In this document: positions 11,780 through 36,452 of the stretch, in pieces | Layout of the letters: each line of letters begins with the position of its first letter | Numbering within the stretch: position 1 is the stretch's first letter | Source of the DNA: an uncultured Candidatus Saccharibacteria bacterium | GTDB lineage: Bacteria > Patescibacteriota > Minisyncoccia > Phycocordibacterales > JAACPR01 | Direction of reading: 5' to 3' | Assembly: GCA_964402215.1 (NCBI GenBank) | Contig: CAYOAT010000001.1 | Location: 134,703-198,702 of the forward strand | DNA length: 64,000 bases | Position numbers and translations under genes: made by a program | Notes under the pieces: model-generated | What the model was told of the DNA's origin: nothing | Database searches by the model: none | The model's input: only the letters and a program-made list of their open reading frames with translations

Positions 11780-11888
11780 TTATTGTGTTTTAACGCTGAC
11801 TCATTATATACCCGAATGTAAATTAAAGAACTTGCTTAAAATTTTTAATTATGTTAAAAACATGTTGATAAGGTGTTAATAATTTTTT

Positions 11889-12340: not shown

Positions 12341-12357
12341 GGTATGATTTTATATAT

Positions 12358-13134
12358 ATGAAGGAAATATTCATCAACGTAGTCGTTCAGCCTTTTTACA
12401 ATGCCTTAATTTTATTAACTAATTTTGTTACAAGCGATTTGGGTATTGCTCTTATTATCTTAACTATAATTTTTCGTTTAGTTCTCTTCCCTCTTTACAA
12501 GAGTCAAATTAGAACGCAAATAAAAATGAATCAAATTCAGGAGCCTTTGAAAAAGATTCAAGAAAAATATAAAAATGACCGCGAGGCGTTGGGCAGAGAG
12601 ATGTTGAAACTTTATAAACAAAATAAAGTAAATCCGTTTTCTGGAATTCTTATTTTAATTATTCAGTTACCACTTCTACTTGGTTTTTATTATGTTTTTT
12701 CTAGAGCCGGATTACCAAACATTAACGAAAATCTTCTTTATTCATTTGTTCACTGGCCAGATAATTTGAGTACCGTTTTTCTTGGAATTATCGACATGAC
12801 TGGAAAAAGTTTACCTCTTGCAATAGCCGCTGCGGTCGCACAATTCTTTCAGATGCAGTTAATGCTTCCAAAAAAGAAAGCTGTTGATGAAACAAAGAAA
12901 ACCAACAATGTTTCGCCAGAGAATGTTATGAAAAGTATGCAAACACAAATGGCGTATGTCATGCCAGCAATGATGGGAATGTTTGCCTACACACTTGGTG
13001 CGATGCTGGGTCTATATTTTCTAGTCGGAAGTTTAATTTCTATTGGTCAAGAATTTTATATAAGAAAAAGTATAAAGGGTCCAGAAGAAGAACGCCTAAA
13101 GAAGGAAAAAGAATTGTCAGAGAAAATTATTTAG
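12358..13134 (+). CDS. yidC: Membrane protein insertase YidC (short Gram-positive-type form)
   Basis: 258 aa, five TM segments, conserved 60KD_IMP core. rpmH-rnpA-yidC synteny. Confidence 0.85.
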   Translation: MKEIFINVVVQPFYNALILLTNFVTSDLGIALIILTIIFRLVLFPLYKSQIRTQIKMNQIQEPLKKIQEKYKNDREALGREMLKLYKQNKVNPFSGILILIIQLPLLLGFYYVFSRAGLPNINENLLYSFVHWPDNLSTVFLGIIDMTGKSLPLAIAAAVAQFFQMQLMLPKKKAVDETKKTNNVSPENVMKSMQTQMAYVMPAMMGMFAYTLGAMLGLYFLVGSLISIGQEFYIRKSIKGPEEERLKKEKELSEKII

Positions 13135-14404
13135 TTATATCTAAACTCCACAAAGATAGGTCTTTTTTGTTTTGAAATAGTATATATTCTTCCTGTTCTG
13201 AAAGCTGGATGCCGTCAATATCAAATGCATATTTTGAAATAGATTCAAATTTTGATGTTGTGTTTAGGTCGAGATCAATTTTATATAGTTCATCTGTAAA
13301 TGAAACTGTTCCCTGGTACCACATGTCTGGGTATGGGCCAGCAGGCATCTTTCTTGGAACTGCACAATAAACCAGGTTTGTATTTTTTTTGCTCCAAACA
13401 CATTTTTCGGCAAAAGTTCTTAACCCAAAACCTTTTGTTTCGTTTGTTTTTAAATCAACAATACTTGTTGTAATAGAATCATTTTTATATTCAGAAACCA
13501 ACATTTTTGTTTGGTTTGAATTCTGATTTACAAGAAGTCCCAATCTGTCGTCTTGGATAATATTTAGCGAACCACTAACCGGGTCAAGAGAAAATGCAAA
13601 TCCTTCTGAGAAGTATGATGGTTTTGTTGTTAATATTATTTGTTTATTGACCCAATTTGCTAGCCATTCTGTGATCGCATAATCCATTATTAGTGTTTGA
13701 TTTTGTGGTGATGAACCATTGAATGTATATCCTTTGCCGTCCTTCGTATAAAAGAATTTATCTTCGGTTGGTGACTTTGTAATTGCCACTACATTTTTCG
13801 GTAAGAAGCTACCCTGTAGTAGTGAAAATGGGCTCTCGTTTTCTTCAGCAGTTGTAGTTGATGTTTTTGACAAAATTTTGGCGACAAATGTTTCTATGTT
13901 TTCGTTTGCATCAAGATATCTTAAAACAACTCCGTCCCCAGCGGTAAAAAATGATGCCTCATATACTTTAGGGACAGTCGTATTTGTAATTCTGTCGATC
14001 TTCAAACTATTTTCCGTTGTTTCAAAAACATTACCAGTTGCGCGGTCCACATATCTATAAATAGTCTCTGTTTGGTTTCGTTTAGACTCCGGAATATTTT
14101 CTTGGGATTGAGCAACTAATCTTTCAAAGGTTGTAAAACCCGAAATTGGAGAAGCGACGATTTGGCGAAGTGTCGGAATACTTTTTATTTCTTCCAAGCT
14201 AGTTGGAACACTTCCATCAGCAGTGTTTGTTGATGAACCTGTGTTATTTGACACTGGCAAAGTATATCCGTTATTTGTTGTGTCAATTTTTCCGTCAGAG
14301 TCGTTATCTACTGTTTTGTAGGATGAAATAATTAAATATCCAATAAATATTAATGCCAAAATTGTTACTGCTGCTAATATTTTTATTGCGGTTTTTCTTG
14401 TCAT
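13127..14404 (-). CDS. Membrane-anchored or secreted protein, last gene of the T4SS-like operon; beta-rich, function unknown
   Basis: N-terminal TM anchor (ILAAVTILALIFIGYLIIS), then a 400-aa hydrophilic Ser/Thr/Asn-rich domain. Confidence 0.5.
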   Translation of the reverse strand: MTRKTAIKILAAVTILALIFIGYLIISSYKTVDNDSDGKIDTTNNGYTLPVSNNTGSSTNTADGSVPTSLEEIKSIPTLRQIVASPISGFTTFERLVAQSQENIPESKRNQTETIYRYVDRATGNVFETTENSLKIDRITNTTVPKVYEASFFTAGDGVVLRYLDANENIETFVAKILSKTSTTTAEENESPFSLLQGSFLPKNVVAITKSPTEDKFFYTKDGKGYTFNGSSPQNQTLIMDYAITEWLANWVNKQIILTTKPSYFSEGFAFSLDPVSGSLNIIQDDRLGLLVNQNSNQTKMLVSEYKNDSITTSIVDLKTNETKGFGLRTFAEKCVWSKKNTNLVYCAVPRKMPAGPYPDMWYQGTVSFTDELYKIDLDLNTTSKFESISKYAFDIDGIQLSEQEEYILFQNKKDLSLWSLDITK

Positions 14405-14415
14405 GTTATTTTTTA

Positions 14416-14940
14416 CTAATCGGCCTCATTTGCAGAACCACCACCCGGCGGAGTAGGCGAAACATTCCCCCCTATTGGGCCTGCTGATGGAATGAATAGG
14501 CGCATTGAAGTAATTGAACTGTTAATTTGGTTCAAAATTAACCAGGATATTAGAGCAAGGATAAGACCAGCAATGGCTGATTGAATTTTAGTTAGACCTT
14601 CCTTTTTTTCGAAAACCGCGTCCGTTGTCATATATTGTATAGAACCTAGAACAATATATAGAATAGCAAGTACTAGTGCTATAACAATCATCCACTTGAA
14701 TACCTTTGCCAGAATTCCACCAGTTGAGTCGAAATCAGATTCAACAAAAAGACCATTGCCACTACCGGTATCAGTTAGTGGCACATAACTATCAAGAGCT
14801 TGTGCGGCTTGCTCATTCTGTGTCAAATTTTTAGTATCAGTATTCCCAAAATTAATAGTTATTAAAACCGAGATTAATATAACTAAAAAAGTTAGTGTGG
14901 CCGACACAAGCATTATTTTTTTATTAAGAATATTTATCAT
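14416..14940 (-). CDS. VirB2/TrbC-like pilin candidate
   Basis: 174 aa. Long N-terminal signal/TM, hydrophilic spacer, then two closely spaced hydrophobic helices (ILAKVFKWMIVIALVLAILYIVLG / IQSAIAGLILALISWLILNQI) and a Gly/Pro tail. This is the topology of T4SS pilins. Sits in the T4SS-like operon. Confidence 0.4.
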   Translation of the reverse strand: MINILNKKIMLVSATLTFLVILISVLITINFGNTDTKNLTQNEQAAQALDSYVPLTDTGSGNGLFVESDFDSTGGILAKVFKWMIVIALVLAILYIVLGSIQYMTTDAVFEKKEGLTKIQSAIAGLILALISWLILNQINSSITSMRLFIPSAGPIGGNVSPTPPGGGSANEAD

Positions 14941-14942
14941 AA

Positions 14943-16013
14943 TTAAAATCGTGAATCATTATTTTTATAATATTGTACCTCCGTTATTTTCGTAGCCTTT
15001 ATAAATGGGTTTGCAAGGTTATTAATGGTAACAGAAAAATATGCTGAACCGTTTGTATTTTCTTCGTTTGCAAAAACTATATAGTTTGCCGTATCTGATA
15101 TATTTAATTTTGTGATTCCTCTATACCACTCGTATCTCAAGTCCTTTAAAGCATTTTTATCAAAAAAGAACGGTGAGATATAAATTTTTATCTCGTCACT
15201 ATTCAACATAATTTTATCACTTAAATCTTTATTTGAAAAAATTCCAAGAGAAGGGCTATTCTCATAGAAAATAGGTAATGGTTTTATAAACCTAAAACTC
15301 TCGATTGTTTTATTGGTTATGCTCTCATTTACTACTTTAATTGAGACGGTAATCATTACTTCCGTGGTGTAATTTTCTGGTTTAAAATAGAGAATATTTT
15401 TTCCTGCTCCTGATGCCTGAATATTTGTTTCGCCGTTAATTCTCCATGTGAAAACTATATTATCGTCGTCAATTCTTTTTCTGTCATACCCGAGTAGGTT
15501 TGTGACGGCAACAAATTCGATCTGTGACCCTTTTGATGGGAGACGCTTGCCTTTATAAAATGGGAAAGTTGTTGTCTGTGCCTCGTAAAATATTGATAAT
15601 TCTGATGCCGATACAGTCTCAGTTGCAGTGTATTCCAAACCACGACTTTTTACCACAACTTTTACTTTTGTGTCCCCTCCGATATCACCTACTTTTGTAT
15701 TAATTTCTTTTAAGCCAAGTCCACTTGTAATCAATTTGTCATTAACATACCAAAATATTGTTGATTCATTAAGTGATAGAGATTGACTCTCAACAATAAC
15801 TGTCACTGGACTGTTAGGCGTAGGGTTTGATGGACTAAATAATAAATTAACAGATGGTTTTCTCATTTCAAGTGAAGAGGGTATCGAATCCCCGGAGTTT
15901 TCAACCGAGCTTGTATCAATATCAGTCCAAGTTGTTTGCGCCGACAGATTGAATATTGGTAAAAAACAAAAAATCAGTGAACTAAATAGTAATGTTAATA
16001 TAAAACGTTTCAT
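14943..16013 (-). CDS. Secreted beta-rich protein in the T4SS-like operon, unknown function
   Basis: Signal peptide MKRFILTLLFSSLIFCFLPIFNLSAQ, 356 aa. Confidence 0.5.
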   Translation of the reverse strand: MKRFILTLLFSSLIFCFLPIFNLSAQTTWTDIDTSSVENSGDSIPSSLEMRKPSVNLLFSPSNPTPNSPVTVIVESQSLSLNESTIFWYVNDKLITSGLGLKEINTKVGDIGGDTKVKVVVKSRGLEYTATETVSASELSIFYEAQTTTFPFYKGKRLPSKGSQIEFVAVTNLLGYDRKRIDDDNIVFTWRINGETNIQASGAGKNILYFKPENYTTEVMITVSIKVVNESITNKTIESFRFIKPLPIFYENSPSLGIFSNKDLSDKIMLNSDEIKIYISPFFFDKNALKDLRYEWYRGITKLNISDTANYIVFANEENTNGSAYFSVTINNLANPFIKATKITEVQYYKNNDSRF

Positions 16014-16072
16014 TAGTATAATTGTAACAAATCACCTACCTTTGTGAAATAGCTTATTAGTGTAATGGCAAA

Positions 16073-16471
16073 TTATACTTTCTTTGTGATAACCGCCTTC
16101 CCTATTTTTGCGACATCAGCCAAGTCGCCACTTGTGTCACCACTGTCTTCTTTCCATGTCTGTCTGATTGTCAGAATTACGCCAATAGTAGTTAGACAGA
16201 AATCAATGACAGGTATAGGTAGCAGTTCGCCAATACTACTAACCCAAAACTTTCCACCAGATTTTGGACTACTTAGTTTTATATTTGAAGCCATGAACCA
16301 AATAGAAAAACTGATAAGCGCAAAAATATCAGGAATATATGCTAATACAACTCCGACAAACGGTAATAAATCAAACAAAAACTCCATTAGATCAAAGAAA
16401 ATGGCCAACATCACCATGCTCGCGGCCGACATTTTCGAAATTCTTCTATATTTATCATTTTCTTGCGCCAT
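16073..16471 (-). CDS. Small polytopic membrane protein in the T4SS-like operon
   Basis: 132 aa, three hydrophobic segments. Co-directional and tightly spaced with virB4. Preferred over the overlapping + strand ORF 16065..16484. Confidence 0.4.
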   Translation of the reverse strand: MAQENDKYRRISKMSAASMVMLAIFFDLMEFLFDLLPFVGVVLAYIPDIFALISFSIWFMASNIKLSSPKSGGKFWVSSIGELLPIPVIDFCLTTIGVILTIRQTWKEDSGDTSGDLADVAKIGKAVITKKV

Positions 16472-16476
16472 CTTTT

Positions 16477-18360
16477 TTATTTAAACCCCTCCAAATCTTT
16501 TTGAATTTTTCTGACATTCGATTCTTGAGTAGAAACGTTTTGTGCAGAGTCGTGTAACATTTGTTTGTTTTTTCTAATATCCAAAACTTGCGCAGGGTTT
16601 GAAGTAATTAGTTGGTCTTCGGCATATGAACCAATAACTTTGATGGCTACGTGTTTTAACCCAGCAAAGAATATTCCCTCCCCGACATCTGATTCCAAGA
16701 GTAAATATTTTTCCTCGTCAGTTAAGTTGAAGGTTTTTTGGACAATATCAATTGATGATACAGATTGTTTCATCAACATTTGCATAGACGAGTTGCTGAT
16801 AATTGGAATTCCATACGGAGAATTCAAAAAGTCTTCAACGTCCTGGGTGATAGTTGAAAGACCTAGATAATATTTTCTTCCTCTTTTTGCCAAACTAAAC
16901 AAAAATGATGCAGTGTCTTCTGATTTCATCATCCACCAAGCCTCGTCGATAACAAGTAATCTTTTTCTGAGATCCTTTCTAATCGCGGTCCAAATATGGT
17001 GTGTGACCAAATACATCGCAATAGGTTTTAGCTCGTCCTCCATGTCTCGTAGAGAGAAAACAATAAAGTTTTTATTTATATCGACATTTGTTGGTTTGTT
17101 GATGAAACCTGACCAAGTTCCCTTTGTATATTTTGTCAGTTTTTGCGCTAAATTTTCCGCACCTTCCATACCACCCAGAACCAATTCAAAGTCAGTCATC
17201 ATTGGGGGTTCGATTTGTGAAAAATCAGATTCAGGCGTGATATCCTTTAAAGCATAAGTTTCTGAAATTGCACGGTCTATTATTGCATCTTCCTCTGGAG
17301 TCAAACCTCCGAACATTAATCTAAATAAACCAACAAGGTTTACAATGTTTGAACGTAAAACATCAGATGGTTGTTCATCTGGTCGTGGAGCCGGAATATC
17401 AAACGGATTAATGTGGTGATTTGAAGTTAAAGAAATATTAAAGAATCTACCGCCCGTTGCTTCGGCCATATATTCATATTCCCTTTCTGGGTCGATAACA
17501 ATAACTTCTACGCCAAACATTAGGGATCTTAGTATTTCAAGTTTTGTTGTATAAGATTTTCCTGCACCGGCCTTTGCAAATGTTACCGAATTATAATTTT
17601 CAAGTGAAAATCTGTCGAACAAAACGAGACCAGAATTGTGTCTGTTAATTCCATATAAAATACCCTTATCGGCGGTTAATTCGAATGAAATGAATGGAAA
17701 AATACTAGACAATGGCTCAGAATTTAATTTTGTATGTATACCAAGTAAATCTGTGGCAATTGGAATAATGCTCTTGAAACCCTCTTCCTGTTGAAAAACG
17801 GCCGGTTTTACATAAACTAATTTCGCTTCAAGAATTGATTTTATTTCAGATTCAACTTTATCAAGTTCGTCATCAGAACTACCATATATAGATAGATATA
17901 AACCAACGTCAAAAATCTTTTCTTGGGCTTGTTGTAGGTTGTCGCGCAATGTTTCAAGATCTCTAAATGCCGTGTCCAATTGTGGATCACGAACCAAGCC
18001 TTTCTCCATTCGCATATTAATTTGGCTTTCGACTTCCGCAACTTTTTTCTGGAACTGGCGCAAAATGACTGTGGTATCGATTGGGTGAACGAAAATTGAA
18101 ATATCAAAAACCTTGTCTAGGTTTATTATTGGAGAGAACCAATTGTCAGATAAAAATCTTGGATAAGAAATAACAAAAAAACTTCTAACAATTCTGTCAC
18201 CAAGGCTTAATTCACGAGGGGAAACTTTTAAAGCGGGAGGAGCAATAATATCCTTTAATTCCAAAACACCTGCCTCATAAATTTGCTGTGGTAAAAATGA
18301 AGTAATTTTTGGTGCTTCTGTTTTAGAACTTTTTCCTTTTATAAAATCTAATATTCCCAT
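16477..18360 (-). CDS. virB4: VirB4/TrbE/CagE-family T4SS ATPase (ATPase and middle domains)
   Basis: Walker A FAKAGAGKSYTTK. Walker B LLVIDEAWWMM. Conserved GLSTITQDVEDF C-terminal motifs. About 260 residues precede Walker A, i.e. the usual N-terminal domain is absent here and lies on the upstream ORF. Confidence 0.85.
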   Translation of the reverse strand: MGILDFIKGKSSKTEAPKITSFLPQQIYEAGVLELKDIIAPPALKVSPRELSLGDRIVRSFFVISYPRFLSDNWFSPIINLDKVFDISIFVHPIDTTVILRQFQKKVAEVESQINMRMEKGLVRDPQLDTAFRDLETLRDNLQQAQEKIFDVGLYLSIYGSSDDELDKVESEIKSILEAKLVYVKPAVFQQEEGFKSIIPIATDLLGIHTKLNSEPLSSIFPFISFELTADKGILYGINRHNSGLVLFDRFSLENYNSVTFAKAGAGKSYTTKLEILRSLMFGVEVIVIDPEREYEYMAEATGGRFFNISLTSNHHINPFDIPAPRPDEQPSDVLRSNIVNLVGLFRLMFGGLTPEEDAIIDRAISETYALKDITPESDFSQIEPPMMTDFELVLGGMEGAENLAQKLTKYTKGTWSGFINKPTNVDINKNFIVFSLRDMEDELKPIAMYLVTHHIWTAIRKDLRKRLLVIDEAWWMMKSEDTASFLFSLAKRGRKYYLGLSTITQDVEDFLNSPYGIPIISNSSMQMLMKQSVSSIDIVQKTFNLTDEEKYLLLESDVGEGIFFAGLKHVAIKVIGSYAEDQLITSNPAQVLDIRKNKQMLHDSAQNVSTQESNVRKIQKDLEGFK

Positions 18361-18365
18361 GATAA

Positions 18366-18986
18366 TTATTGTTTAGTTGGTGAATTAACTTCGCTTGGAT
18401 TGAATATTTTGTAATAAATTTCGATTATTTCTTCCGTTCCAAGGCGGGCGACGCGCACACCGCACCTACTAATTCCCTGTTTAACCACAGAAACTCTTTG
18501 CTCCAGCTGACTTCGACTTTCTTCAAAATCGTCAGCAACCTGTTGAACCTTTGTTTTTTTATTTCCGCCAAACATTTTGCTGCCTTTTGATAAGTTAAGT
18601 CCTGGCGGAGTATAAGGAATGACAATAAAAAAGTTTTTTGTCATTATATTTACACTTTCGGTAAAAGTTTTAATAAAGTTTATGTATTCTTTTGATTGAA
18701 TTCGAAGCAAATCATTTGTCTGCGATTTGGTTTTATCTTCCAACATCGCCAGATAGGGTCTAATATCAAGCTTTCTTGATTGTATAAAAATTTGAATTGT
18801 AAAATCTAATGAGTTAAGAAAATTTTGAAATTGAAAAATTATCGCTTCCTGTTCGTCCTGGGATTTTAAAGCAAAGTTAAGAGACGAGGTCATCATAATT
18901 GCGCGCATCGATCCATCTTTCAATATAGCAACGCCATCCCTGACCTCTTTTATTGGAACAAAATCTTGTGATGTTTTTGGTACCAT
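18366..18986 (-). CDS. Stand-alone VirB4 N-terminal (CagE_TrbE_VirB-like) domain protein
   Basis: 206 aa. ...VPIKEVRDGVAILKDGSMRAIMMTSSLNFALKSQDEQEAIIFQFQNFLNSL... aligns by eye with the VirB4 N-terminus (YLPYIGHLSDHIVLLEDGSIMSIARIDGVAFELEE...AFNTLFRNI). Stop is 5 nt upstream of the virB4 ATG in another frame. Confidence 0.5.
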   Translation of the reverse strand: MVPKTSQDFVPIKEVRDGVAILKDGSMRAIMMTSSLNFALKSQDEQEAIIFQFQNFLNSLDFTIQIFIQSRKLDIRPYLAMLEDKTKSQTNDLLRIQSKEYINFIKTFTESVNIMTKNFFIVIPYTPPGLNLSKGSKMFGGNKKTKVQQVADDFEESRSQLEQRVSVVKQGISRCGVRVARLGTEEIIEIYYKIFNPSEVNSPTKQ

Positions 18987-19028
18987 TTGAAATTATTATA
19001 CACTATATTATCTACACCCCTAAACTTG

Positions 19029-19436
19029 CTATTCGATTTTCTCTTTAATGTCCAAACTCCAAGATAAGTCTTTCAATTTGCTGTCAGAGAGCTTGGGCAA
19101 AAACATTCCTGGATCAATAGCGGCTTCTGCGTTACCTTTTGCTTCTATTTTCTTTGGTATTTTTTTCCAAATATAAATTTTACTGCCTGTAAAATATTTT
19201 ACAGAATTCTCAAATGTTTGGACAAAAGGTTGCCATCCATCAAATTTAAAAAAAGCAAACATAAGGAAAAGAGCAACAACAGGAATGCCTAGAATAATAG
19301 CAATTATTTTTGGAAAGATGCTCCAAATAATAAACCCTATTCCAGCAGCACCACCGACGTACAAAAATTGTTTTGCCGTTAATGGGCCGAATATTTTGTC
19401 TTCAACCCCGATAAATTGTGGAACTTGATATTTCAT
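19029..19436 (-). CDS. VirB3/PrgI-like small two-TM membrane protein
   Basis: 135 aa. Two adjacent TM helices (FLYVGGAAGIGFIIWSIF / IIAIILGIPVVALFLMFAFF) near the N-terminus. Immediately upstream of the VirB4 ORFs, as in Gram-positive-type T4SS. Confidence 0.4.
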   Translation of the reverse strand: MKYQVPQFIGVEDKIFGPLTAKQFLYVGGAAGIGFIIWSIFPKIIAIILGIPVVALFLMFAFFKFDGWQPFVQTFENSVKYFTGSKIYIWKKIPKKIEAKGNAEAAIDPGMFLPKLSDSKLKDLSWSLDIKEKIE

Positions 19437-19443
19437 TTATAAC

Positions 19444-20061
19444 TTATTCTAACACTTCCCTGTAAGGGTCGATAACTTTTGGTTTTACAACATAATTTTC
19501 CGTCTTTGATTCGACAACAGAAGTCAGTTTTTGTTCAGCGATTTTATTTTCTATGCTGGTTACTTCTGTTTTGGCTGGCGCTGTTTCAATATTTTTAACT
19601 AGTGTTGTCGTTGGTTCATCAGATAGTATTTCCAAATGGTCAGACATTTCTGCTGCAATGGATTCCTTTGTAGGTGTGGAGGTTTTTATGTTGTCTTCTG
19701 GCAAGATAGAAACAGATTGCTTCTTCTCTTGTAGCTCTACAAGTTTTTGCTTTATGTCTCTAAAAACTTCATCTTCTACTGAATTAATTATGCTGTTTAA
19801 TTTTTCATCCTCAAGTTTAATTTCTTGTTTAAGGACATCGGCATATTTTATTGGACTAATAATGCCAAGCATTACAAGAAAAGTATTTTTTTCAAGAGTA
19901 TTAGCATCTCCTATTACAAGATTATTTTTTTTAGATATCGCGCGTATTTTTTGTTCCCAATGAGAATTAACAATCGCTTCTTTTATTACTTGTGGTAGCG
20001 AATTAAATATTTCTACTATTGGATCGTTTTCAGTGCTTTGTTGGTTGTTTGGTTCTTGCAT
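19444..20061 (-). CDS. Hydrophilic coiled-coil protein in the T4SS-like operon
   Basis: Start trimmed to M17 (MQEPNN...) to remove a 38-nt overlap with the upstream gene. No TM and no recognisable domain. Confidence 0.4.
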   Translation of the reverse strand: MQEPNNQQSTENDPIVEIFNSLPQVIKEAIVNSHWEQKIRAISKKNNLVIGDANTLEKNTFLVMLGIISPIKYADVLKQEIKLEDEKLNSIINSVEDEVFRDIKQKLVELQEKKQSVSILPEDNIKTSTPTKESIAAEMSDHLEILSDEPTTTLVKNIETAPAKTEVTSIENKIAEQKLTSVVESKTENYVVKPKVIDPYREVLE

Positions 20062-20071
20062 AATAATTTGC

Positions 20072-22210
20072 TTATGATTTTGGAGTAGCTGGAGGAGTTG
20101 GACCGGCACCCTTGCTCATTTCGGCTGTCAGGGTTTTTATCAATTGCGCCATAGCTTTTTCATCATTGCTCTTGTACATACTCTTTACTCGATCTTCAAT
20201 TGCTTTATTTTGTCCCTGCGTTAGTGGAATTATTTCATTAGCAAATTTTCTAATACCCAGATTTGGATCGCTACCCAATATTTTTTTGGCTTCCCTTTTC
20301 TCAATTGAATTCTTTAGAGATTCCAAACTTGCGGAAGTTGCGGTAAGCTCAGACTCATCTTCATTATTGTTTTCAATTTGTGCCGTAATTGCTTCGACGT
20401 CTCTCAAGGCTAAGTCGGCTTGATTTCTATAGTTGTTTGCTCCAATTATGTCACCAGCAGCTTCAAGTTTTACAGCCTCGGCAGAGAAATTCTTTGCCTC
20501 ATCCTTAACTACGTTAAGCTGGGTTTGTAAATCTTTTTGTCTTTGTCTAATACCCTCAAGTTGTGTCTTGGTTCGTGCAAGTTCACTTTCGGCTTCCTTA
20601 TATTCATTATCATCTCTAGCACTTGCAAGTGCGCGTCTCTGAATATCTGCATCTTGACCTCTTCCCGTCAAACCAAGTCTTTCATTTCTGTCAGCGATTT
20701 CTTTTGCAGCATCCTTAGTTTCCTTTTCAAATGTTGAACTCGAACCTTTGCCGGCATCAAGACCTGAAAGTTTTAATAATTCAGCAGCACCCCTAGTGTT
20801 TCTGATATCAAAAGTACTTTTTGCAGCTTTATTTCCAACATCGGATATACCTCGGCCAACAAAGTTCGCAGCAAAATTATTTCCGACACGACGTTTGAAT
20901 CTCGCCCCAAAACTATCGCCCTCTGCAGTTTTCCAATTTTGTAGAGTTGAGCTTGTTTTAGCTAATCTGTTTCCAACTCCACCAATAAGTTTTCTACCAG
21001 CAAATGCGCCCATACCCATTGCCATTCCCATACCTGCTTCTGCACCATGTGCACCTGATTGCTTTCCAACTATAACTGCTCCTATTAAAAATGAAGTAAC
21101 AATTATAAAGTTCAAGATTATACTAAAGGCACCACCATTACCCCCATGTTCGTTAGCTTCAGCAATGTTCCCCCACGCCGATACTCCGTTTGCGACATTT
21201 GTTGCTGAATCAATAAAACCTGGACCCGCAAGCTGATATGAAATATATAAAAAGAGAAACATGGCTGGAAGTGAAATTAAATGGCTTAATAGGCTTGTTG
21301 ACCATTTTTCAGTGTACTTACTTAATACGGGCAATATCCACCCACCGAACATTATAGGTGAAGCAATTAATAGAAAAATTAAACTTATAAATCTCGTAAA
21401 TACAACTATTGCAACTGCAAAAAAAACAATTGCAGCTATTACCAAAAATATAGCGACGAGGATATAAATACCAGCCTTTTTATAGTTGTCGGTTTCTCTT
21501 GCTAGGGCTGGATCACTATCCATATCATAGAACAGTGTAAAACCAAGTCTTTGCATAAAACAATTTGATAAACCACCGTCAGTAAAATAACGCTCATCTT
21601 GAGGTGTTAGGGCTTCAGGATTATCACCGACAGTGACTGTTGGTGCGTTGCAGCCATTCATATTGTCATAGAAACTAAGCGCTAGGACATTTGAAACGTC
21701 GATAGCCACCGATGTAAAAAAGAAGCTAAAATTGATTAGTAGGGCACTCATTATAATTTGGCCCAATCTTTTTTTGCTATTCTCTGACCAACCACCAATT
21801 ATAGTCGTAATTGATAGGTACAAAAGGCCGAAAATAAAGAATAAATTTAATACATCACGGAAAATACTCCAAGCATTTGCAATGGCGTTGGTATCTTTAA
21901 TAATTCTGGCCATTTGTGTTACTCCAATATAAATAACAAAGTTTAGAAAAGTTCCTGAAAGCCATATGATCCATGCACATAGTCTAAAAAATAGTTTAGC
22001 AATCCCTAATATCAAATATCCAAATGCAGTTCTGAGTGCCTCGCCAATGCCCAAAATGGAGCTATCCTCGGTTTCTGCTGCTTTGTTTTCTGCCGGCGCG
22101 GCTTGCGCAATATGAGTTGAAATTATAAAAATAAACGCAATGGCAATTATCAACAAAATAAAAGCCAGTAACGTATTTTTTTTATATGAATTTAATTTCA
22201 ATTTAAACAT
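20072..22210 (-). CDS. VirB6/TrbL-like polytopic inner-membrane protein with Gly-rich segment and about 300-aa C-terminal coiled-coil extension
   Basis: Signal peptide, at least 6 TM segments, GMGMAMGMGAFAG Gly-zipper, long charged coiled-coil tail. Architecture of VirB6/TrbL (or Gram-positive TcpH/PrgH-like) channel proteins. Confidence 0.5.
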   Translation of the reverse strand: MFKLKLNSYKKNTLLAFILLIIAIAFIFIISTHIAQAAPAENKAAETEDSSILGIGEALRTAFGYLILGIAKLFFRLCAWIIWLSGTFLNFVIYIGVTQMARIIKDTNAIANAWSIFRDVLNLFFIFGLLYLSITTIIGGWSENSKKRLGQIIMSALLINFSFFFTSVAIDVSNVLALSFYDNMNGCNAPTVTVGDNPEALTPQDERYFTDGGLSNCFMQRLGFTLFYDMDSDPALARETDNYKKAGIYILVAIFLVIAAIVFFAVAIVVFTRFISLIFLLIASPIMFGGWILPVLSKYTEKWSTSLLSHLISLPAMFLFLYISYQLAGPGFIDSATNVANGVSAWGNIAEANEHGGNGGAFSIILNFIIVTSFLIGAVIVGKQSGAHGAEAGMGMAMGMGAFAGRKLIGGVGNRLAKTSSTLQNWKTAEGDSFGARFKRRVGNNFAANFVGRGISDVGNKAAKSTFDIRNTRGAAELLKLSGLDAGKGSSSTFEKETKDAAKEIADRNERLGLTGRGQDADIQRRALASARDDNEYKEAESELARTKTQLEGIRQRQKDLQTQLNVVKDEAKNFSAEAVKLEAAGDIIGANNYRNQADLALRDVEAITAQIENNNEDESELTATSASLESLKNSIEKREAKKILGSDPNLGIRKFANEIIPLTQGQNKAIEDRVKSMYKSNDEKAMAQLIKTLTAEMSKGAGPTPPATPKS

Positions 22211-22212
22211 GT

Positions 22213-23232
22213 TTATATCGCTATGTCACCCAGACCCGCGGCACCGAAAGATTCTTTAACAACCTCATCTATAATGGCAAATATTAATTCATTAAACTCG
22301 TCTGCAAGCGCCAGTCTGTCATAAGGAATTCCTGTAATATTTGATATCTTTTGTTGAATCATTTGGCCCGGGGTTATTACATTTCCGTCTTTGTCTCTTA
22401 TGTTCATAAAACCACTACCCCAGGTTAAATTCATCGCCCAGGTGTTTTTTTCGGCCTCAATACGGGCTTGAGCTCTCTGAGACAATTTATCAGCGTCGTC
22501 ATAAGGGTCATTTGCCTGTGTTAATGTAAACCAACTACGCCATCCACCTTTAGCAAAATCGCCACTGGTAAATTGTTGTACTACACCTCCGCCAACAGCA
22601 CCATCTTCACCCAAAATCGTTGATAGTCTGCAGTCTTTTGGTTTCTCCTTTGATTGCCAATTAATTAGTAGTGAAGCAGTTATTCTAATTTTAAAATTTG
22701 AACACAAATCAACATCATCGATTAATTCATCCAGTGCTGTTCCAAAGTCCCTATCAGAGATATTTCTGAAAAATGCCCCAGGATTTTCCAAAAACATTGG
22801 CTTACCATTTGCCCCGTTTTTTACCCATTGGGTCATGCTTACTAGTATGTCTCTTAACATGGATTCAACCAGACATGTTGCGATAGAATCCCACGGAGGT
22901 AGGCTGGTTAATCCATTGCCAGTTTCCTTTGCTCGAATCGATGCATCCTTTACTGGAACTTCAAGAGAAAGAATCCCGCCTGTAAATGATGAAATCCATT
23001 CACTTAGCTTGTCACTAAGCCATCTCATTGCTTCCATCAAAAAAAGGTCAGCGTATGCCTTTACAATACATTTAGCAACTGTCGCCCCTATTGCCAATCC
23101 TGCATCGAGTAGAAGATTATCATTTCTATTATCATTACGGTCTGTCGCATAGTAATCGCGCACATCAGAGGTCGAGTCTAAAGCATGTGCCAAATGAGGG
23201 TTGTATAAAAAAAAGTTGCCAAATATTAACAA
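22213..23232 (-). CDS. Soluble 339-aa protein in the T4SS-like operon, unknown function
   Basis: No TM or signal peptide. Abuts the VirB6-like gene with its stop adjacent to that gene's start. Confidence 0.45.
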   Translation of the reverse strand: MLIFGNFFLYNPHLAHALDSTSDVRDYYATDRNDNRNDNLLLDAGLAIGATVAKCIVKAYADLFLMEAMRWLSDKLSEWISSFTGGILSLEVPVKDASIRAKETGNGLTSLPPWDSIATCLVESMLRDILVSMTQWVKNGANGKPMFLENPGAFFRNISDRDFGTALDELIDDVDLCSNFKIRITASLLINWQSKEKPKDCRLSTILGEDGAVGGGVVQQFTSGDFAKGGWRSWFTLTQANDPYDDADKLSQRAQARIEAEKNTWAMNLTWGSGFMNIRDKDGNVITPGQMIQQKISNITGIPYDRLALADEFNELIFAIIDEVVKESFGAAGLGDIAI

Positions 23233-23294
23233 AAAAAATTATTAAAAAATAAATTGATTTAAATATTTTTTTGCACAGTATTTCGTACATGTAA

Positions 23295-24239
23295 TTAGTA
23301 TCCATCTGACATAATAAATGTTTCTCCATTAAATATTATACCATTGTTTTTTAGGTATTGGAGAATATTGGACCAGTCATCCTGTATAATTTCAGCACTT
23401 TTGTAGTACAAAGATAAACCAAGAAGTTGTAAAAGAGGATCGCTTTCAGCATCTAACCATATAAGTGATATCGCAGTATTATAATAATTGTTAGCTAACC
23501 GAGTTTGTATTTCGGCCATTTTGGCTGGAGTTTTCGTTTCGATGAGGGCTATAGATATTTTTTCAATAGCCTCAAACTGTGCGTTTATGTCGCTAACACC
23601 AGACTGTTCGTAAGACGATCTTGCATCACTTTCTATTTTGATTATTCTATTTGCATATTGAAGTATGCCGTTTCTATCAAGCAAATCATCAAAAGTAAAC
23701 AATGTTGATTGTTCGTAACGATTTTTTATTTTTTTGCTGTTTATGGCCTCAGATGAAACTTTTAATATAAAATCTTTTTTTTGCTGCACAGATAAATCAG
23801 AGCCGGTTTCATTTTTTAAAGAAAAATACTCTTGCATAAAAGCATCAGAAAATTCTTTTGTCAGTCCTGTTGATTGAAGCGGACTATTTTCGATTTTATT
23901 AAGTATTCTTTGTTCTATACTAATATTTTCATCGTCTGGTCCGGCCTTGGCTGGGTTTCGATTTAATTTTACTTCCTCCCCATCATTTGTTTTATCGCCA
24001 TCAGTATCGGCAAGGTTGGGGTCGCTTCCCCATAATGATTCTTCCCAATCTAATAAACCATCAGCATCAGTGTCTTCTTGTAATTTTGTGTCTAAATCAA
24101 TCGAAAGAGAAGTAACGGGTTTGGCGCCAGTTTTTTCAGAAAAACCAGACTCCATGTTTCTTGATATTAAAACAATCAACACAACAATTATGGTTGTAAC
24201 CAGAAACACAACCGAGATTTTTTTACTTGGTATCCTCAT
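23295..24239 (-). CDS. Membrane-anchored protein with Asp-rich calcium-binding-like repeats; first gene of the T4SS-like operon
   Basis: N-terminal TM (VVFLVTTIIVVLIVLIS). Repeats DTDADGLLDWEE / DTDGDKTNDGEE resemble DxDxDG Ca-binding (thrombospondin type-3-like) loops. Confidence 0.5.
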   Translation of the reverse strand: MRIPSKKISVVFLVTTIIVVLIVLISRNMESGFSEKTGAKPVTSLSIDLDTKLQEDTDADGLLDWEESLWGSDPNLADTDGDKTNDGEEVKLNRNPAKAGPDDENISIEQRILNKIENSPLQSTGLTKEFSDAFMQEYFSLKNETGSDLSVQQKKDFILKVSSEAINSKKIKNRYEQSTLFTFDDLLDRNGILQYANRIIKIESDARSSYEQSGVSDINAQFEAIEKISIALIETKTPAKMAEIQTRLANNYYNTAISLIWLDAESDPLLQLLGLSLYYKSAEIIQDDWSNILQYLKNNGIIFNGETFIMSDGY

Positions 24240-24368
24240 TTATAAATTATTATATCAGATTAAAATTCAATAAAAACATTACAATTAATTATACTGTGCA
24301 AAACCCCGCATTGAGGGAATAAGTATTAAATTATTTTAAATATAAAACGCTTTCATTATTCATTTTTT

Positions 24369-27353
24369 TTGATTATAATGCAGAATAAGATGTTTTTATC
24401 TGTTAGACAAAATAAATTTTGGTTTTTTTCTTTAAGATCTATTTTTACCACCATAATTTTTGTTTTAATTTTTTCTAATGTTGATATCAAGTTTGCAAAC
24501 GCTGTTGGTTGGGTTGGTATACCATCGGATTTTTATTCAGCAGGTGCGGTAATGCCTTACGGAGGACAAAGTATTTTAGGCATGTTTTGCCCATGCTCTA
24601 AGGGAAACATTTTTCTTATGCACGATTACAGAACAAGGATGATGTTTCCTGTTTTCCAGGATTTTGCTGAAACAATTTACCATACTAAGCAAAATCTCCC
24701 TGCACTACTTTCACCTGGAAATTACCAGTTAGGAAATTTGGAAGGAGAAACTGAATGTATCGTCGGTGTACCGCCATATTGTCTTGATTTTCTATCAATA
24801 CCAGCATTTAAAATAAAAAACTTTGGTAATGGTGGAATTGTGGCTGCTGGAGGCAATCCAATAAACCCACTAGCCTGGGTTGCACTTGGAACAGCCGCGG
24901 CGATATATGGTTGGTCACTTATTTATGCTGATGGAGATGATGGAACAGCTGAAGGTAGCCCCGGCTGTAATGCCAAATTAACCAAAGTTTGGTTCTGTGG
25001 TAAAGAGCATGGACCAATGGTGGCACATTTTGAAACGCCAGGAAGAACATCTTGGCCACAGAAACAAGATGGAGGTGGTCCAATTGAATATTTATATACA
25101 TGGAGCGGAGCGATTTCTGGTGAAGGGCAGACGCGAACCGTAAATTTCCCGACTCAGGGTTTGAAAAATGTTAAAGTAAAAGTTAAAGATTCATCAAAGG
25201 CCGAACTTTCTAGAGATTGTCCACCAGTTATTGTGGCAAAGCAATCGCCAACAGTTAATCCAAGCTCAAGTGATTTAAATGTTTCATGTACAGTAAGTAA
25301 AACCGTTGTAAATACCGGCGATCGGGTCACCTTTTCTCTAGAAGTCTTTGGTGGCAGCGGGGGCTCTGAATATAGATGGTATGGCGACGTTACGAGCGCG
25401 ACAACAACCTACGCAACTTCCTCGTCCTCTTGGTACAATGAAAATTATATAGATAAATCATTTACGTCAGCAGGAACAAAAATTGTCAGTGTTATGGTCT
25501 CTGATAGTAACGGTAATACCGCACTTAGATATTGCGCGCCAGTTGTAGTGAAAAACGAGGCAGAAACTTTGATGTGCGGTAGAAACTATTTAAATTTAAC
25601 TTGTACAGTTGATAAAAGATCTGTTAATCCGGGAGAGACAATTACCTACTCTGCCAATGGGGCTGGAGGAACGCCGGAACCGGCAATTATGCTTAACGGC
25701 TTAATATATTTAAATGGAAAAAAAGTTGACTGGTTAAAAGTCTGCCAGAACAGCAAAAATTTAGTTAATATGTTTACGTATTACGGAGATTGGAATAGTT
25801 CGAACCTTCCTCATGCCGGAGATATGGTAGAAGTGTCAATTCGATCAATTGATGGTCGTTATGAATTAAAGGGTGAAGCCGAGTGGCCAGAGAGCGGCTG
25901 CGGACCAGAGGGCGGTCAAACATATGATTCATGTGCTGGTTCAGGAGCACCGACAGACGGAGGTTTATCCTGTCCTGGAGCAACACCAACAATACCACCA
26001 GTAAATCCTGTTGAGTGTCCAGATTACTCTGGATCAGCTCCTGCTACTGCCGGATTGGAACCAATTACTTCTTCAACCAATTTAGTTTCATTTGCTGAAA
26101 AAAATGGAGTTGTGTCAATGGAAGCCGAACACTACAAATCACAGACCGGGTACTCTCTTTACAGTAATTCTGAAGCATCGGGTGGAAAAATTATGCAGGT
26201 TGGCGCCGGTGGAAGTCTAAATTTTGAATTCAATATAACAAACCCAGGAACTTGGTATCTATGGATCAGAACCCATGTTACAGATTCGAATAACAACGGC
26301 ATGTATATTAAATTAAATGGTTCCGATCTACGTCATTCAAGCGGAATAAATGATATATATTTAAGCAAAAATGGTTGGTCTTGGATGCCAGAGTGGTTAT
26401 TTGGTGAATCAGATCACAATGGTCCTATTAGTTTTAGATTAAACTCTGGTAAAAATACTATCTCTATTACAAAGAGAAAAATTGAACAACCAATAATAGA
26501 TAAAATTGTTTTAACCAGAACAAATAATCCACCAACTGGTTTTGGACCTGCCGAAACAACTGCGTCGTCAGCGGGGACAACTCCAATAACCGATCCAATT
26601 TCTAATCCTGGCGCAACAGATTTTGCTGCAGTCACGGGACACAGAGCTAGTTTCTTGTTTGATGATGCGGATACACGTGTCATGAACATTTTGTCGCCAA
26701 GGTTATCTAATTCAAGATTTGAACAAATTTTGTCGAGGACGAAAGGAAATGGTGATAATGCAATTTATTTGTTCTTAATCAATCAGGGAGACGGACCTTA
26801 TACGCCACACACATTTTATAAAGATGACCGAATTGGTGGTCAAATTGATAGTGCCAAACTCTCAATATATAAGCAGAGATTAGATGCAATCAAGTCTTTG
26901 GGTTATAAAGTAATATTTTGGATACGCGCTGATGATTCTAGAACAATGATGCAAGAATCAATACAAAATTATAAAAAATACCATCAAGATATTGTTGATA
27001 ATTTTAGTTCATATGCCGACGGATATGTAATTGGTTTAGAGTCAAACGAATATATGGATGCCTCGACCGAAAAAACACTGATCGCTGATATGAAATCGAG
27101 AACAAATAAGACGGTTGGTGTACATTATGGGTCAAGCGATAGTTATAATTCTAGGGCGAAAAATAGTGGAGCTGATATATACTATAGGCAATACGGGTGG
27201 GTATCTTGTAGCAAAGTTGTATCGGTAACAGCTACTACAATTTCGGCAGTTTCTCCAATGAAAGTTGTGGCTGCTGAGTATGATAAAGATTCTGATAGTG
27301 GTTGTGGAGCAGGTGCCCTTCAAGCAGGAGCAATCGGTTACGGAAATGGATAG
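24369..27353 (+). CDS. Large (994 aa) secreted or membrane-anchored surface protein: Cys-rich N-domain, Ig/PKD-like repeats, CBM-like beta-sandwich, C-terminal clan GH-A-like TIM-barrel region
   Basis: N-terminal hydrophobic anchor. Repeated ...V(S/T)CTV(S/D)K..VN(T/P)G(D/E).(V/I)T(F/Y)S... Ig-like modules. Trp/Tyr-rich 'AEHYKSQTGY...WYLWIRTH' CBM-like block. GLESNEY resembling the Asn-Glu acid/base motif of clan GH-A. GC about 45-50%, above neighbours. Start ambiguous (24369/24378/24390). Confidence 0.7.
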   Translation: MIIMQNKMFLSVRQNKFWFFSLRSIFTTIIFVLIFSNVDIKFANAVGWVGIPSDFYSAGAVMPYGGQSILGMFCPCSKGNIFLMHDYRTRMMFPVFQDFAETIYHTKQNLPALLSPGNYQLGNLEGETECIVGVPPYCLDFLSIPAFKIKNFGNGGIVAAGGNPINPLAWVALGTAAAIYGWSLIYADGDDGTAEGSPGCNAKLTKVWFCGKEHGPMVAHFETPGRTSWPQKQDGGGPIEYLYTWSGAISGEGQTRTVNFPTQGLKNVKVKVKDSSKAELSRDCPPVIVAKQSPTVNPSSSDLNVSCTVSKTVVNTGDRVTFSLEVFGGSGGSEYRWYGDVTSATTTYATSSSSWYNENYIDKSFTSAGTKIVSVMVSDSNGNTALRYCAPVVVKNEAETLMCGRNYLNLTCTVDKRSVNPGETITYSANGAGGTPEPAIMLNGLIYLNGKKVDWLKVCQNSKNLVNMFTYYGDWNSSNLPHAGDMVEVSIRSIDGRYELKGEAEWPESGCGPEGGQTYDSCAGSGAPTDGGLSCPGATPTIPPVNPVECPDYSGSAPATAGLEPITSSTNLVSFAEKNGVVSMEAEHYKSQTGYSLYSNSEASGGKIMQVGAGGSLNFEFNITNPGTWYLWIRTHVTDSNNNGMYIKLNGSDLRHSSGINDIYLSKNGWSWMPEWLFGESDHNGPISFRLNSGKNTISITKRKIEQPIIDKIVLTRTNNPPTGFGPAETTASSAGTTPITDPISNPGATDFAAVTGHRASFLFDDADTRVMNILSPRLSNSRFEQILSRTKGNGDNAIYLFLINQGDGPYTPHTFYKDDRIGGQIDSAKLSIYKQRLDAIKSLGYKVIFWIRADDSRTMMQESIQNYKKYHQDIVDNFSSYADGYVIGLESNEYMDASTEKTLIADMKSRTNKTVGVHYGSSDSYNSRAKNSGADIYYRQYGWVSCSKVVSVTATTISAVSPMKVVAAEYDKDSDSGCGAGALQAGAIGYGNG

Positions 27354-27376: not shown

Positions 27377-27401
27377 TAAAACCGGCAGAAGCCGGTTTTT
27401 T
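27377..27401. terminator. Bidirectional intrinsic terminator between the large surface-protein gene and ksgA
   Basis: aaaaccggc-agaa-gccggtttttt hairpin with flanking A and T runs. Confidence 0.55.
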
Positions 27402-27424
27402 ACTTTGTACAATATGGTTTATTT

Positions 27425-35501: not shown

Positions 35502-36452
35502 ATGTCGAATAAGTCTGAAATTGATACTTTGCGTCAAGAATTTCTCGAATATATAGAAATTGAGAGAGGACGAAGCGTTAAAACCGTTGAAAATTACGAT
35601 CATTATTTAAGCCGTTTTTTTGCTGAACAAGGTATTAAAGAAGTTAAAGATATTACTGAGCGGGCAGTTCGTGAATTTCGTCTTTGGTTGAATCGTCAAA
35701 ATACAACGAAAAATATCGGTGGAAGGCTAACCTCCGGTACAATGAAGAAAAGAACTCAAAATTACTATTTAATCGCCCTTAGATCTTTTCTTAAATTTCT
35801 TTTAAAGAGAAATTATAAAGTAATCGCTCCAGATCAAATTGAATTAGCAAAAATTCCAGAGCGTTCTATCGATTTAATTACAAATGACGAATTAAGGAGG
35901 ATTATGGAGGGACCGAAAGGTCAAGACATAAAAGATTTGCGTGACAAAGCGATTTTAGAATTATTTTTTTCGACAGGACTCCGTGTTTCTGAATTATGTT
36001 CATTGAATCGTGAAGTTGATTTGAGTCGAGGAGAATTTGCGATACGAGGAAAAGGAGACAAAATTCGTGTTGTTTTTATTTCTGATTCAGCAAAAAAATC
36101 ATTGGATAAATATTTAGATAAAAGAGATGATATGGACGAGGCAATGTTTGTTCAGCTTGCAGGGAAAGGCGGAAATGATTTATTAAAAAAGAAAGAATCA
36201 ATAAGACTTACTCCGCGATCAATTGAAAGGATAGTCAGATTTTATGCTGTTAAAGCTGGTATTTCAAAGAAAGTTACGCCTCACATTATTCGCCACTCAT
36301 TTGCCACTGATTTACTGTCTAATGGAGCTGATTTGCGTTCTGTTCAGGCGTTACTTGGTCACGCAAATATCACTACAACCCAGGTTTATACTCACGTTAC
36401 AGATAGACATTTAAAAGAAATTCACAATAAATTTCATAATAAAGGATTGTAA
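35502..36452 (+). CDS. xerC: Tyrosine recombinase XerC/XerD family
   Basis: N-terminal SAM-like core-binding domain. C-terminal catalytic R..HxxR..Y (HIIRHSFATDLL...LLGHANITTTQVYTHV). Confidence 0.85.
   Translation: MSNKSEIDTLRQEFLEYIEIERGRSVKTVENYDHYLSRFFAEQGIKEVKDITERAVREFRLWLNRQNTTKNIGGRLTSGTMKKRTQNYYLIALRSFLKFLLKRNYKVIAPDQIELAKIPERSIDLITNDELRRIMEGPKGQDIKDLRDKAILELFFSTGLRVSELCSLNREVDLSRGEFAIRGKGDKIRVVFISDSAKKSLDKYLDKRDDMDEAMFVQLAGKGGNDLLKKKESIRLTPRSIERIVRFYAVKAGISKKVTPHIIRHSFATDLLSNGADLRSVQALLGHANITTTQVYTHVTDRHLKEIHNKFHNKGL

Follow-up and report, generated by a model that had tools for sequence, protein, structure and literature searches.

Bacteria of the Candidate Phyla Radiation (CPR, or Patescibacteria) have tiny, poorly annotated genomes and are thought to live attached to other microbes. 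Their surface proteins are the most direct clues to their diet and contact partners. A chromosomal type IV secretion system (T4SS) near the origin of replication, with ksgA close by, is known from Paceibacteria and Microgenomatia; in the T4SS of Patescibacteria no PrgB-type adhesin and mostly no VirB1 were detected, and other glycosidases might substitute (PMC12102498). In clan GH-A of the glycoside hydrolases (GH), the unpublished structure 4N0R has been assigned to a family without a name, a distant relative of GH140 and of a new β-agarase family; all of them belong to the clan (2026 preprint). Here we analyse a 64,000-nucleotide stretch of a patescibacterial genome (contig CAYOAT010000001.1, positions 134,703 to 198,702; the window), in which a gene for a 994-residue protein diverges from an origin-proximal T4SS operon. 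We consider it probable, with moderate confidence, that this gene encodes a lineage-specific, secreted and probably surface-retained modular polysaccharide hydrolase of Paceibacteria.

The open reading frame (ORF) is uninterrupted and has a TTG start; its position and length are exactly those given in an initial annotation, which had been made from the letters of the window alone. In-frame ATG codons at positions 4 and 8 are alternative starts, and no clear Shine-Dalgarno sequence was found upstream of the TTG. In a near-identical public contig (L004, JGI Ga0207193_1000328) the gene is called as two proteins of 454 and 411 residues, and P0004 is the C-terminal piece of the gene as split in these calls. 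A split gene or pseudogene was considered and rejected: L004 has a scaffold gap of 160 N at 5708-5867, inside the gene, which the window fills with 257 nucleotides (25728-25984). Since the gap explains the split calls, and since the homologue P0001 is full-length and collinear with the 994-residue protein (59% identity, 99% coverage), the ORF is real and intact. Its features are the following.

24369..27353, plus strand: complete ORF of 994 residues and stop codon; full-length homologues P0001 (59% identity) and P0002
24369..24503, plus strand: Sec-type signal peptide or signal anchor, residues 1-45, with a basic n-region, a hydrophobic core at residues 17-37 and ANA/VG
24504..24965, plus strand: clade-specific N-terminal domain, residues 46-199, conserved in P0001 and P0002 only
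24966..25244, plus strand: PKD-like Ig repeat 1, residues 200-292, aligning to the PKD-annotated repeats of P0003; motif Y-x-W-x-G...F...G...V-x-V-x-D...C-P-x-V
25254..25562, plus strand: PKD-like Ig repeat 2, residues 296-398, with sub-threshold matches to Pfam PKD, Ig_3 and DUF11; BLASTP to P0003 repeats, E 2e-27
25563..25883, plus strand: divergent third Ig-like repeat, residues 399-505, whose start aligns with repeat 2 and the P0003 repeats
25884..26090, plus strand: linker rich in Gly, Pro, Ser, Thr and Cys, residues 506-574, with four Cys; assigned by composition and holding the local GC maximum
26091..26555, plus strand: GH115_C-type β-sandwich, residues 575-729, a putative glycan-binding module resembling a carbohydrate-binding module (CBM); Pfam PF17829
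26640..27350, plus strand: compact (β/α)8 barrel, residues 758-994, clan GH-A-like, of an uncurated family; AlphaFold2 (AF2) model, Foldseek and family alignment
26931-26933, 27039-27041, 27123-27125, 27189-27191 and 27276-27278, plus strand: codons of the invariant residues D855, E891, H919, Q941 and E970, respectively, from a 53-member alignment

The C-terminal ~250 residues were modelled with AF2 from a seven-sequence alignment. The barrel model has a predicted local distance difference test score (pLDDT) of 86.5 and a predicted template modelling score (pTM) of 0.88, and consists of eight alternating strand/helix units. A Foldseek search of the PDB with this model returned 308 matches at E ≤ 1e-3, with E values down to 9e-8. 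The top 50 include 49 glycosidases or putative glycoside hydrolases; where a family is stated, it is GH1, GH5 or GH113. The best superposition is with 4N0R, one of two Bacteroides structures among the top matches (TMq 0.68, root mean square deviation 4.5 Å). Sequence identity to any solved structure is ~10-13%, and the barrel is compact, with ~235 residues against >300 for most of the Foldseek matches listed. The glycoside-hydrolase-like C-terminus of the initial annotation thus reappears in the structure prediction as a (β/α)8 barrel with clan GH-A enzymes as its top matches.

Residue conservation was assessed in an alignment of 53 diverse members of the barrel family. D855, E891, H919, Q941 and E970 are invariant in all 53, and D856 is present in 52. 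In the predicted model the invariant residues sit at the C-terminal ends of strands 3 to 7 or immediately behind them; E891 directly follows strand 4 (residues 141-146 of the modelled segment) and E970 is in strand 7 (residues 221-227). The C-terminal strand ends form the catalytic face of TIM barrels. The family signature reads W-L-x-A-D-D-S, G-L-E-x-[DN]-E, G-x-H, Q-Y-G and A-A-E-Y. GLESNEY in our protein had initially been likened to the catalytic Asn-Glu of clan GH-A. This motif is indeed at the C-terminal end of strand 4, but the invariant Glu is E891, preceded by Leu (in 47/53 members). The pair at 893-894 is Asp-Glu in 36/53 and Asn-Glu in 14/53; E894 is found in 46/53 and lies in a helical turn after the strand.

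Profile comparisons gave faint signals from the same clan. The family profile weakly matches the GH5 cellulase 6xso (E 0.0036) and the GH140 structure 3kzs (3kzs/5msy; E 0.019) in the PDB. The weak alignment with 6xso pairs AAEY of the family with IIGEW, which we take to be the GH5 strand-7 nucleophile motif. Pfam Cellulase (PF00150) scores 14.7 bits on the barrel (E 0.022), below its cut-off of 23.5, and even sub-threshold matches to this model occur in just 2/53 members. Apiosidase (PF13204, GH140/DUF4038) does not match the 994-residue protein and matches 1/53 members, at E 6.3e-5. Individual members have sub-threshold matches to Pfam Cellulase, GH2_C and Apiosidase. Judging from the model, the barrel would work like a clan GH-A glycosidase. 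It lacks the canonical Asn-Glu, having Leu in front of the invariant Glu, and we assign it to no existing GH family.

The module preceding the barrel can be identified directly. PF17829, the model of the GH115 C-terminal domain, matches with E 1.8e-6 and 28.4 bits (cut-off 24.1), from profile position 2 to 172 of 172, which gives the aromatic-rich β-sandwich block of the initial annotation a fold above the Pfam threshold. No GH115 catalytic domain was detected by Pfam anywhere in the protein; the C-terminal-domain model alone matches. Neither the complete protein nor the isolated sandwich gave a significant match in PDB sequence searches. The GH115_C-type sandwich may bind glycans.

The Ig-like region likewise fits its first description as tandem Ig/PKD-like modules. 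Pfam PKD (PF00801) scores only 13.9 bits against a cut-off of 23.5, while the region aligns by BLASTP with the repeats of P0003, for which PF00801 and PF18911 are precomputed, at E 2e-27 and in multiple registers. Repeats 2 and 3 are similar to each other (46% over 28 residues, E 6e-4); beyond its start, the third repeat is conserved in P0001 and P0002 only. A relationship to PamR of the CPR Pam pilus (NCBIfam NF058578) was rejected: the match reaches 17.2 bits against an equivalog cut-off of 300. As it covers one Ig-like repeat only, and PamR consists of two FnIII domains and a C-terminal transmembrane helix, we regard it as a generic fold resemblance.

At the N-terminus, the anchor proposed initially is borne out by a Kyte-Doolittle hydropathy peak at residues 16-29, with ANA/VG at residue ~45. 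The N-termini of P0001 and P0002 are likewise hydrophobic, and P0002 has VYA/FP; the signal may be cleaved. The domain that follows (residues 46-199) contains the motifs PYGGQ, C-x-CS, HDY, PGNYQLGNL, FGNGG, INPLAW and DGDDGTAEGSPGC. Its residues 166-187 (24864-24929) are conserved and form a moderately hydrophobic, Ala/Gly/Trp-rich helix, INPLAWVALGTAAAIYGWSLIY, after which comes the invariant acidic motif DGDDGTAEGSPGC. The domain has no Pfam or NCBIfam match, and neither a search of 5.8 billion proteins nor a metagenome pattern scan found further relatives of it. The AF2 model of the N-terminal 294 residues has a pLDDT of 35.8, which is too low, and we draw no conclusions from it. Fusion to a VirB2-like pilin was also rejected: hhalign against the alignment of the operon pilin gave a probability of 13%, and only the signal peptide aligned. 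The protein has 18 Cys (1.8%, compared with 0.6% in other genes). They are spread over residues 74-550, plus positions 947 and 979, so that the Cys content noted initially is real, whereas a single Cys-rich region is not. This distribution would suit an extracellular, disulphide-bonded protein.

When 1.84 billion cluster representatives were searched exhaustively by profile, the barrel proved to be part of a sizeable family, with 422 members at E ≤ 1e-3 and 114 at E ≤ 1e-30. Most are stand-alone proteins of 260-300 residues. We found no Pfam, NCBIfam or PHROG model covering the family and no name for it in public sources, where its members are called 'hypothetical protein' and no characterised one was found; a GTDB scan for the barrel with patterns from close relatives found nothing. 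In some members the barrel is fused to FG-GAP repeats, to a ConA-like Laminin_G_3 domain, or to fn3, Big_5, PKD and dockerin domains, and others have type IX secretion system (T9SS) sorting tails, LPXTG anchors or lipoprotein signals. These partners and sorting signals appear to mark extracellular, carbohydrate-related proteins. In two independent contigs, the gene for P0009 (870 residues; FG-GAP repeats and barrel) immediately follows one for a sulfatase (L007 945-2894 and L008 2727-4676); some family members may act on sulfated glycans.

Two members occur in phage surroundings. P0055 (L090 3463-5886; 807 residues, barrel C-terminal) adjoins the gene for a major head protein (Pfam Gp23; phrog_138, E 1.5e-60). 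P0015 (L091 2585-3373 and L092 1158-1946), a stand-alone protein of 262 residues, is encoded inside a phage replication module with genes for DNA polymerase, a Cas4-like exonuclease, RecA, Dam, MT-A70, a radical SAM protein and QueC. The link to phages is made by these two metagenomic contexts, checked with PHROGs; a tblastn search of annotated GenBank phages gave no match to the barrel, and pattern scans of IMG/VR gave no confirmed relative.

A further relative is P0012 (L005 10001-11659; also L006), a paralogue of 552 residues that consists of a GH115_C-like sandwich (E 5.5e-8) and a barrel. Its gene is flanked by those for a PfkB sugar kinase and fructose-bisphosphate aldolase, in a neighbourhood that includes rpiB, rpe and transketolase genes but no T4SS. 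P0012 and P0001 come from one metagenome sample, where they lie on different long contigs, and probably from one genome. As P0012 has the same two modules in a different place, sandwich and barrel together make up a self-contained cassette. It goes with sugar use and, in phages, probably with glycans of the bacterial surface.

From these observations the following mode of action can be proposed. The hydrophobic segment at the N-terminus would act as a Sec-type signal or anchor for export, and the protein may be retained on the surface through its N-terminal region. The N-terminal domain, the three PKD-like repeats and the Gly/Pro/Cys linker would form a disulphide-stabilised stalk and keep the enzyme at a distance from the cell. 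The GH115_C-type sandwich, which sits beside the catalytic module, would bind or position the polysaccharide, and the predicted barrel would hydrolyse its glycosidic bonds by a retaining double displacement in which, as in retaining enzymes of clan GH-A, E891 (or possibly the nearby E894) would be the acid/base and E970 the nucleophile. The likely substrate is a polysaccharide outside the cell, probably of a microbial cell surface or matrix, which would be cut for its sugars and/or for access to partner cells; this is suggested by the members in phages and in dockerin, T9SS and LPXTG proteins, and by the paralogue among sugar-catabolic genes. Two points weigh against the proposal. The Asn that precedes the acid/base Glu in clan GH-A is absent at the invariant E891 in the 53-member alignment. 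Furthermore, if the helix at residues 166-187 were membrane-spanning, the remaining 800 residues would not be extracellular.

On its other side the gene faces the T4SS operon, and this neighbourhood comprises the following elements.

13127..24239, minus strand: origin-proximal T4SS operon encoding p314, p339, a VirB6-like protein, p221, PrgI, a TrsD-like protein and VirB4, p356, a VirB2-like pilin and p425; context, not judged part of the feature
24240..24368, no strand: divergent intergenic region, AT-rich, 129 bp, between p314 (minus strand, first gene of the T4SS operon) and the 994-residue gene
27378..27409, plus strand: terminator-like hairpin (27378-27399; 9-bp stem with 5 GC pairs) and T-rich tail, between the 994-residue gene and the convergent ksgA

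The divergent orientation reported initially is correct. The operon encodes a T4SS_pilin protein, a PrgI/VirB3-like protein, a TrbL/VirB6-like membrane protein and a VirB4 that is split into a TrsD-like ORF of 206 residues (18366-18986) and an ORF of 627 residues (16477-18360). Directly beyond it are dnaA, dnaN and yidC (9100-13134), an arrangement that matches the one described for Paceibacteria and Microgenomatia (PMC12102498). We compared the locus with 80 related loci from GTDB genomes, collected with VirB4 as query (73-87% identical) together with 10-kb flanks; they represent Taylor-, Campbell-, Zambryskii-, Kaiser- and Wolfebacteria and other Paceibacteria. They share a conserved backbone, UvrD-KsgA-p314-p339-VirB6-p221-PrgI-TrsD-VirB4-p356-pilin-p425-YidC-DnaA, whose order is the same in nearly all 80. 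TrsD was detected in 78 loci, PrgI in 77 and VirB6 in 55. In the same search, no domain of the 994-residue protein was detected in any locus (0/80; tblastn, E ≤ 1e-5, four segments covering residues 1-505, 575-735 and 755-994). Five operon proteins, p339 (22213-23232), p314 (23295-24239), p356 (14943-16013), p425 (13127-14404) and p221 (19444-20109), have no significant Pfam or NCBIfam match. They were found, at E ≤ 1e-5, in 41 (p339), 33 (p314), 72 (p356), 58 (p425) and 22 (p221) of the 80 loci, and look like lineage-specific T4SS components. p314 shows faint matches to TSP3-type calcium-binding repeats.

Both ksgA and a p314 homologue were found in 26 loci, in which the slot between them could be surveyed. 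It is empty (<400 bp) in 12 of these, holds only an ORF of 123-158 residues in 4, and has a larger insert in 10 (L019, L025, L031, L035, L040, L051, L057, L073, L078 and L084). The larger inserts are 1.4-1.7 kb long, diverge from the T4SS operon, and encode an ORF of 115-154 residues and a protein of 297-423 residues. Three of the larger proteins were scanned against Pfam: two contain PG_binding_1 and IPT/TIG, and one contains TIG only. The content of the slot between ksgA and the T4SS therefore varies, and surface proteins tend to be found where it is filled. The divergent arrangement with the 994-residue gene is kept only in the genome of P0001, where the whole region is syntenic (ksgA, uvrD, LysM/M23, Mg-chelatase).

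The spacer itself gives no sign of joint control. Promoter-like matches number 9, below the 12 expected from shuffled sequences; one match is on the plus strand (TTTATA-16-TAAAAT, 24239-24266). Comparison with the orthologous locus L001 shows that the conserved block adjoins p314, on the T4SS side, and not the 994-residue gene. We therefore rejected a shared regulatory element in the spacer. With a hairpin terminator of its own, the 994-residue gene is likely to be a monocistronic unit.

The initial annotation had put the GC content of the gene at 45-50% against about 38% nearby. The measured value is 39.5%, compared with 34.8% in the window and ~36% in the 5-kb flanks, and a value of 48% is reached in just one 300-nucleotide stretch, which starts at 25779 in the Gly/Pro-rich linker. 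The gene does have the highest 3-kb GC content in the window. The mean of the 48 other genes is 35.2%, which gives the gene a z score of 1.4, and 4 genes are higher. At codon position 3 the GC content (GC3) is close to the mean, 28.0% compared with 27.2% (z = 0.16), and so is GC1 (z = -0.24); the sole outlier is GC2 (46% against 33%, z = 3.0). The GC2 excess is due to amino-acid composition, the protein being enriched in Gly, Ser, Thr, Pro and Cys and depleted in Lys, Ile, Glu and Leu. In synonymous codon usage the gene is the nearest to the pooled genome among all 49 genes. A compositional anomaly had been part of the original description, to be given up if the composition turned out to be within the genome's normal range; the synonymous sites prove native, so the anomaly is dropped, and nothing in the composition points to recent foreign origin. 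The only other GC maximum of the window, at 42.8-43.3 kb (~43% in 1-kb windows), falls on the ORF of a trypsin-like peptidase (41974-43203, minus strand), a probable exported protein, and on a tRNA-Gly gene (43253-43324). It fits the view that local peaks come from particular gene products and not from foreign DNA. No integrase, repeats or tRNA were found flanking the 994-residue gene. About 8 kb downstream of it (35502-36452, plus strand) is a tyrosine recombinase gene of the Phage_integrase family, XerC/D-like; because the same recombinase is present in the syntenic relative L001, it is probably a chromosomal Xer rather than a mobile-element integrase.

How else could the gene be read? The initial annotation had seen it as a host-surface glycan binding or cutting protein co-regulated with the secretion apparatus. 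The modular architecture and, through the GH115_C sandwich and the barrel, the idea of surface glycan activity are supported; the co-regulation is not. In its strong form this idea makes the protein a T4SS accessory that supplies the missing PrgB-like adhesin, or a VirB1/PrgK-like cutter of wall or envelope, at the site of contact with the partner cell. The divergent arrangement with its 129-bp spacer, conserved in the genome of P0001, argues for it, as does the lack of detectable PrgB-type adhesins and, mostly, of VirB1 in patescibacterial T4SS, for which glycosidases might substitute (PMC12102498). It is also in keeping with the different secreted proteins in 10/26 related slots (PG_binding_1 and TIG in two of three scanned), since the slot may favour surface proteins, and with the phage members of the barrel family, which suggest bacterial envelope glycans as substrates. 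Nevertheless, we consider it unlikely. None of the 80 loci with the same backbone carries any of the domains, the slot is free of genes in 12/26, and the only conserved case is one of whole-region synteny at close range. The paralogous cassette of sandwich and barrel lies among sugar-metabolism genes; a terminator of its own follows the gene, and the side of the spacer next to it contains no conserved element. Pfam and NCBIfam scans of the protein found no homology to VirB1/PrgK, PrgB, VirB2, VirB5, VirB6 or VirB8. The comparative evidence thus speaks against a specific link, and the protein does not appear to be a component of the neighbouring T4SS. A bolder version, that the barrel founds a new clan GH-A family (Leu-Glu strand-4 motif, envelope or matrix glycans as substrates, use in phage structural regions) and was recruited in this Paceibacteria lineage, through a unique N-terminal docking domain, as the 'missing' adhesin or envelope-cutting factor of the T4SS when the cell attaches to a partner, strikes us as distinctly improbable.

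Quite unlikely, in our judgement, is a barrel that is not a glycosidase at all, be it a non-catalytic module for glycan binding or adhesion, or another TIM-barrel hydrolase such as a metal-dependent phosphodiesterase acting on teichoic-acid-like polymers. In the latter case the invariant Asp-Asp/Glu/His/Gln/Glu set would serve as metal or phosphate ligands, and the invariant His and near-invariant Asp-Asp could be compatible with metal binding. In favour of this, none of the curated GH families reaches its threshold, the invariant Glu lacks the Asn-Glu signature of GH-A, and weaker fold matches among viral proteins include barrels of the glycerophosphodiester phosphodiesterase (GP-PDE) type. 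Against this, the best PDB fold matches are almost all glycosidases, with E values down to 9e-8, and the weak sequence-profile matches are all to clan GH-A. The placement of the two invariant Glu, one on strand 4 and one on strand 7, is that of the 4/7 superfamily; GH115_C, ConA-like, dockerin, fn3 and PKD partners are typical of glycosidases; and five strictly invariant polar residues argue for catalysis over mere binding. As for a recently acquired foreign island, in which the raised GC would mark a surface-protein gene brought to the T4SS flank by horizontal transfer, the gene is lineage-specific and absent from the same slot in 80 relatives, and has the highest 3-kb GC content in the window. 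Yet GC3, GC1 and codon usage match the genome, only codon position 2 shows the GC excess, there is no integrase, repeat or tRNA at its flanks, and a diverged relative retains the gene at 59% identity in full synteny. Any acquisition must therefore be old; recent transfer as read from GC was rejected, and the island as a whole is highly improbable. We thus favour the surface-displayed polysaccharide hydrolase.

The 994-residue gene is an expressible, testable candidate for such an enzyme. It also brings to light a clan GH-A-like family of ~420 clusters that is common to CPR bacteria, other bacteria (with T9SS and dockerin tags) and phages; a single characterised member would annotate the whole family and might define a new CAZy family. 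That the gene adjoins the T4SS reflects a variable insertion slot, and the protein should not be annotated as part of the T4SS. A modular surface glycosidase would not be surprising in kind. What appears to be new is an uncurated clan GH-A-like barrel with a predicted non-canonical strand-4 motif in a CPR lineage.

Among known systems, the VirB1/PrgK/TraG hydrolases and PrgB adhesins of T4SS of the mating-pair formation type FATA (MPF-FATA) are comparable in that the gene next to the T4SS is one for a secreted protein, here combining a predicted hydrolase domain with Ig-like repeats. The 994-residue protein differs from them in having no SLT, lysozyme, CHAP or PrgB domains, in its clan GH-A-like rather than lysozyme-like barrel, and in not being co-conserved with the T4SS (0/80). 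Most known phage depolymerases are β-helix proteins rather than TIM barrels. The likeness to tail-fibre and tail-spike depolymerases is one of layout, a long N-terminal part followed by a C-terminal enzymatic module, as in P0055 (L090), whereas the 994-residue gene is chromosomal, located in a syntenic housekeeping region, and native in codon usage. With the modular surface or secreted carbohydrate-active enzymes (CAZymes) of monoderm bacteria the protein shares the order of signal or anchor, PKD-like repeats, sandwich and catalytic barrel. Its sandwich is of GH115_C type and, as far as can be tested, not of an established CBM family; it has no LPXTG, SLH or dockerin anchor, and its N-terminal domain of 150 residues with a hydrophobic helix is unique. 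Finally, the barrel sets itself apart from the clan GH-A (4/7) hydrolases of the GH5/GH113/GH140/4N0R neighbourhood by its compactness (~235 residues), its identity of ~10-13%, the Leu before the strand-4 Glu and scores that pass no family threshold, but in the predicted model it has both the (β/α)8 fold and the strand-4 and strand-7 Glu of these enzymes.

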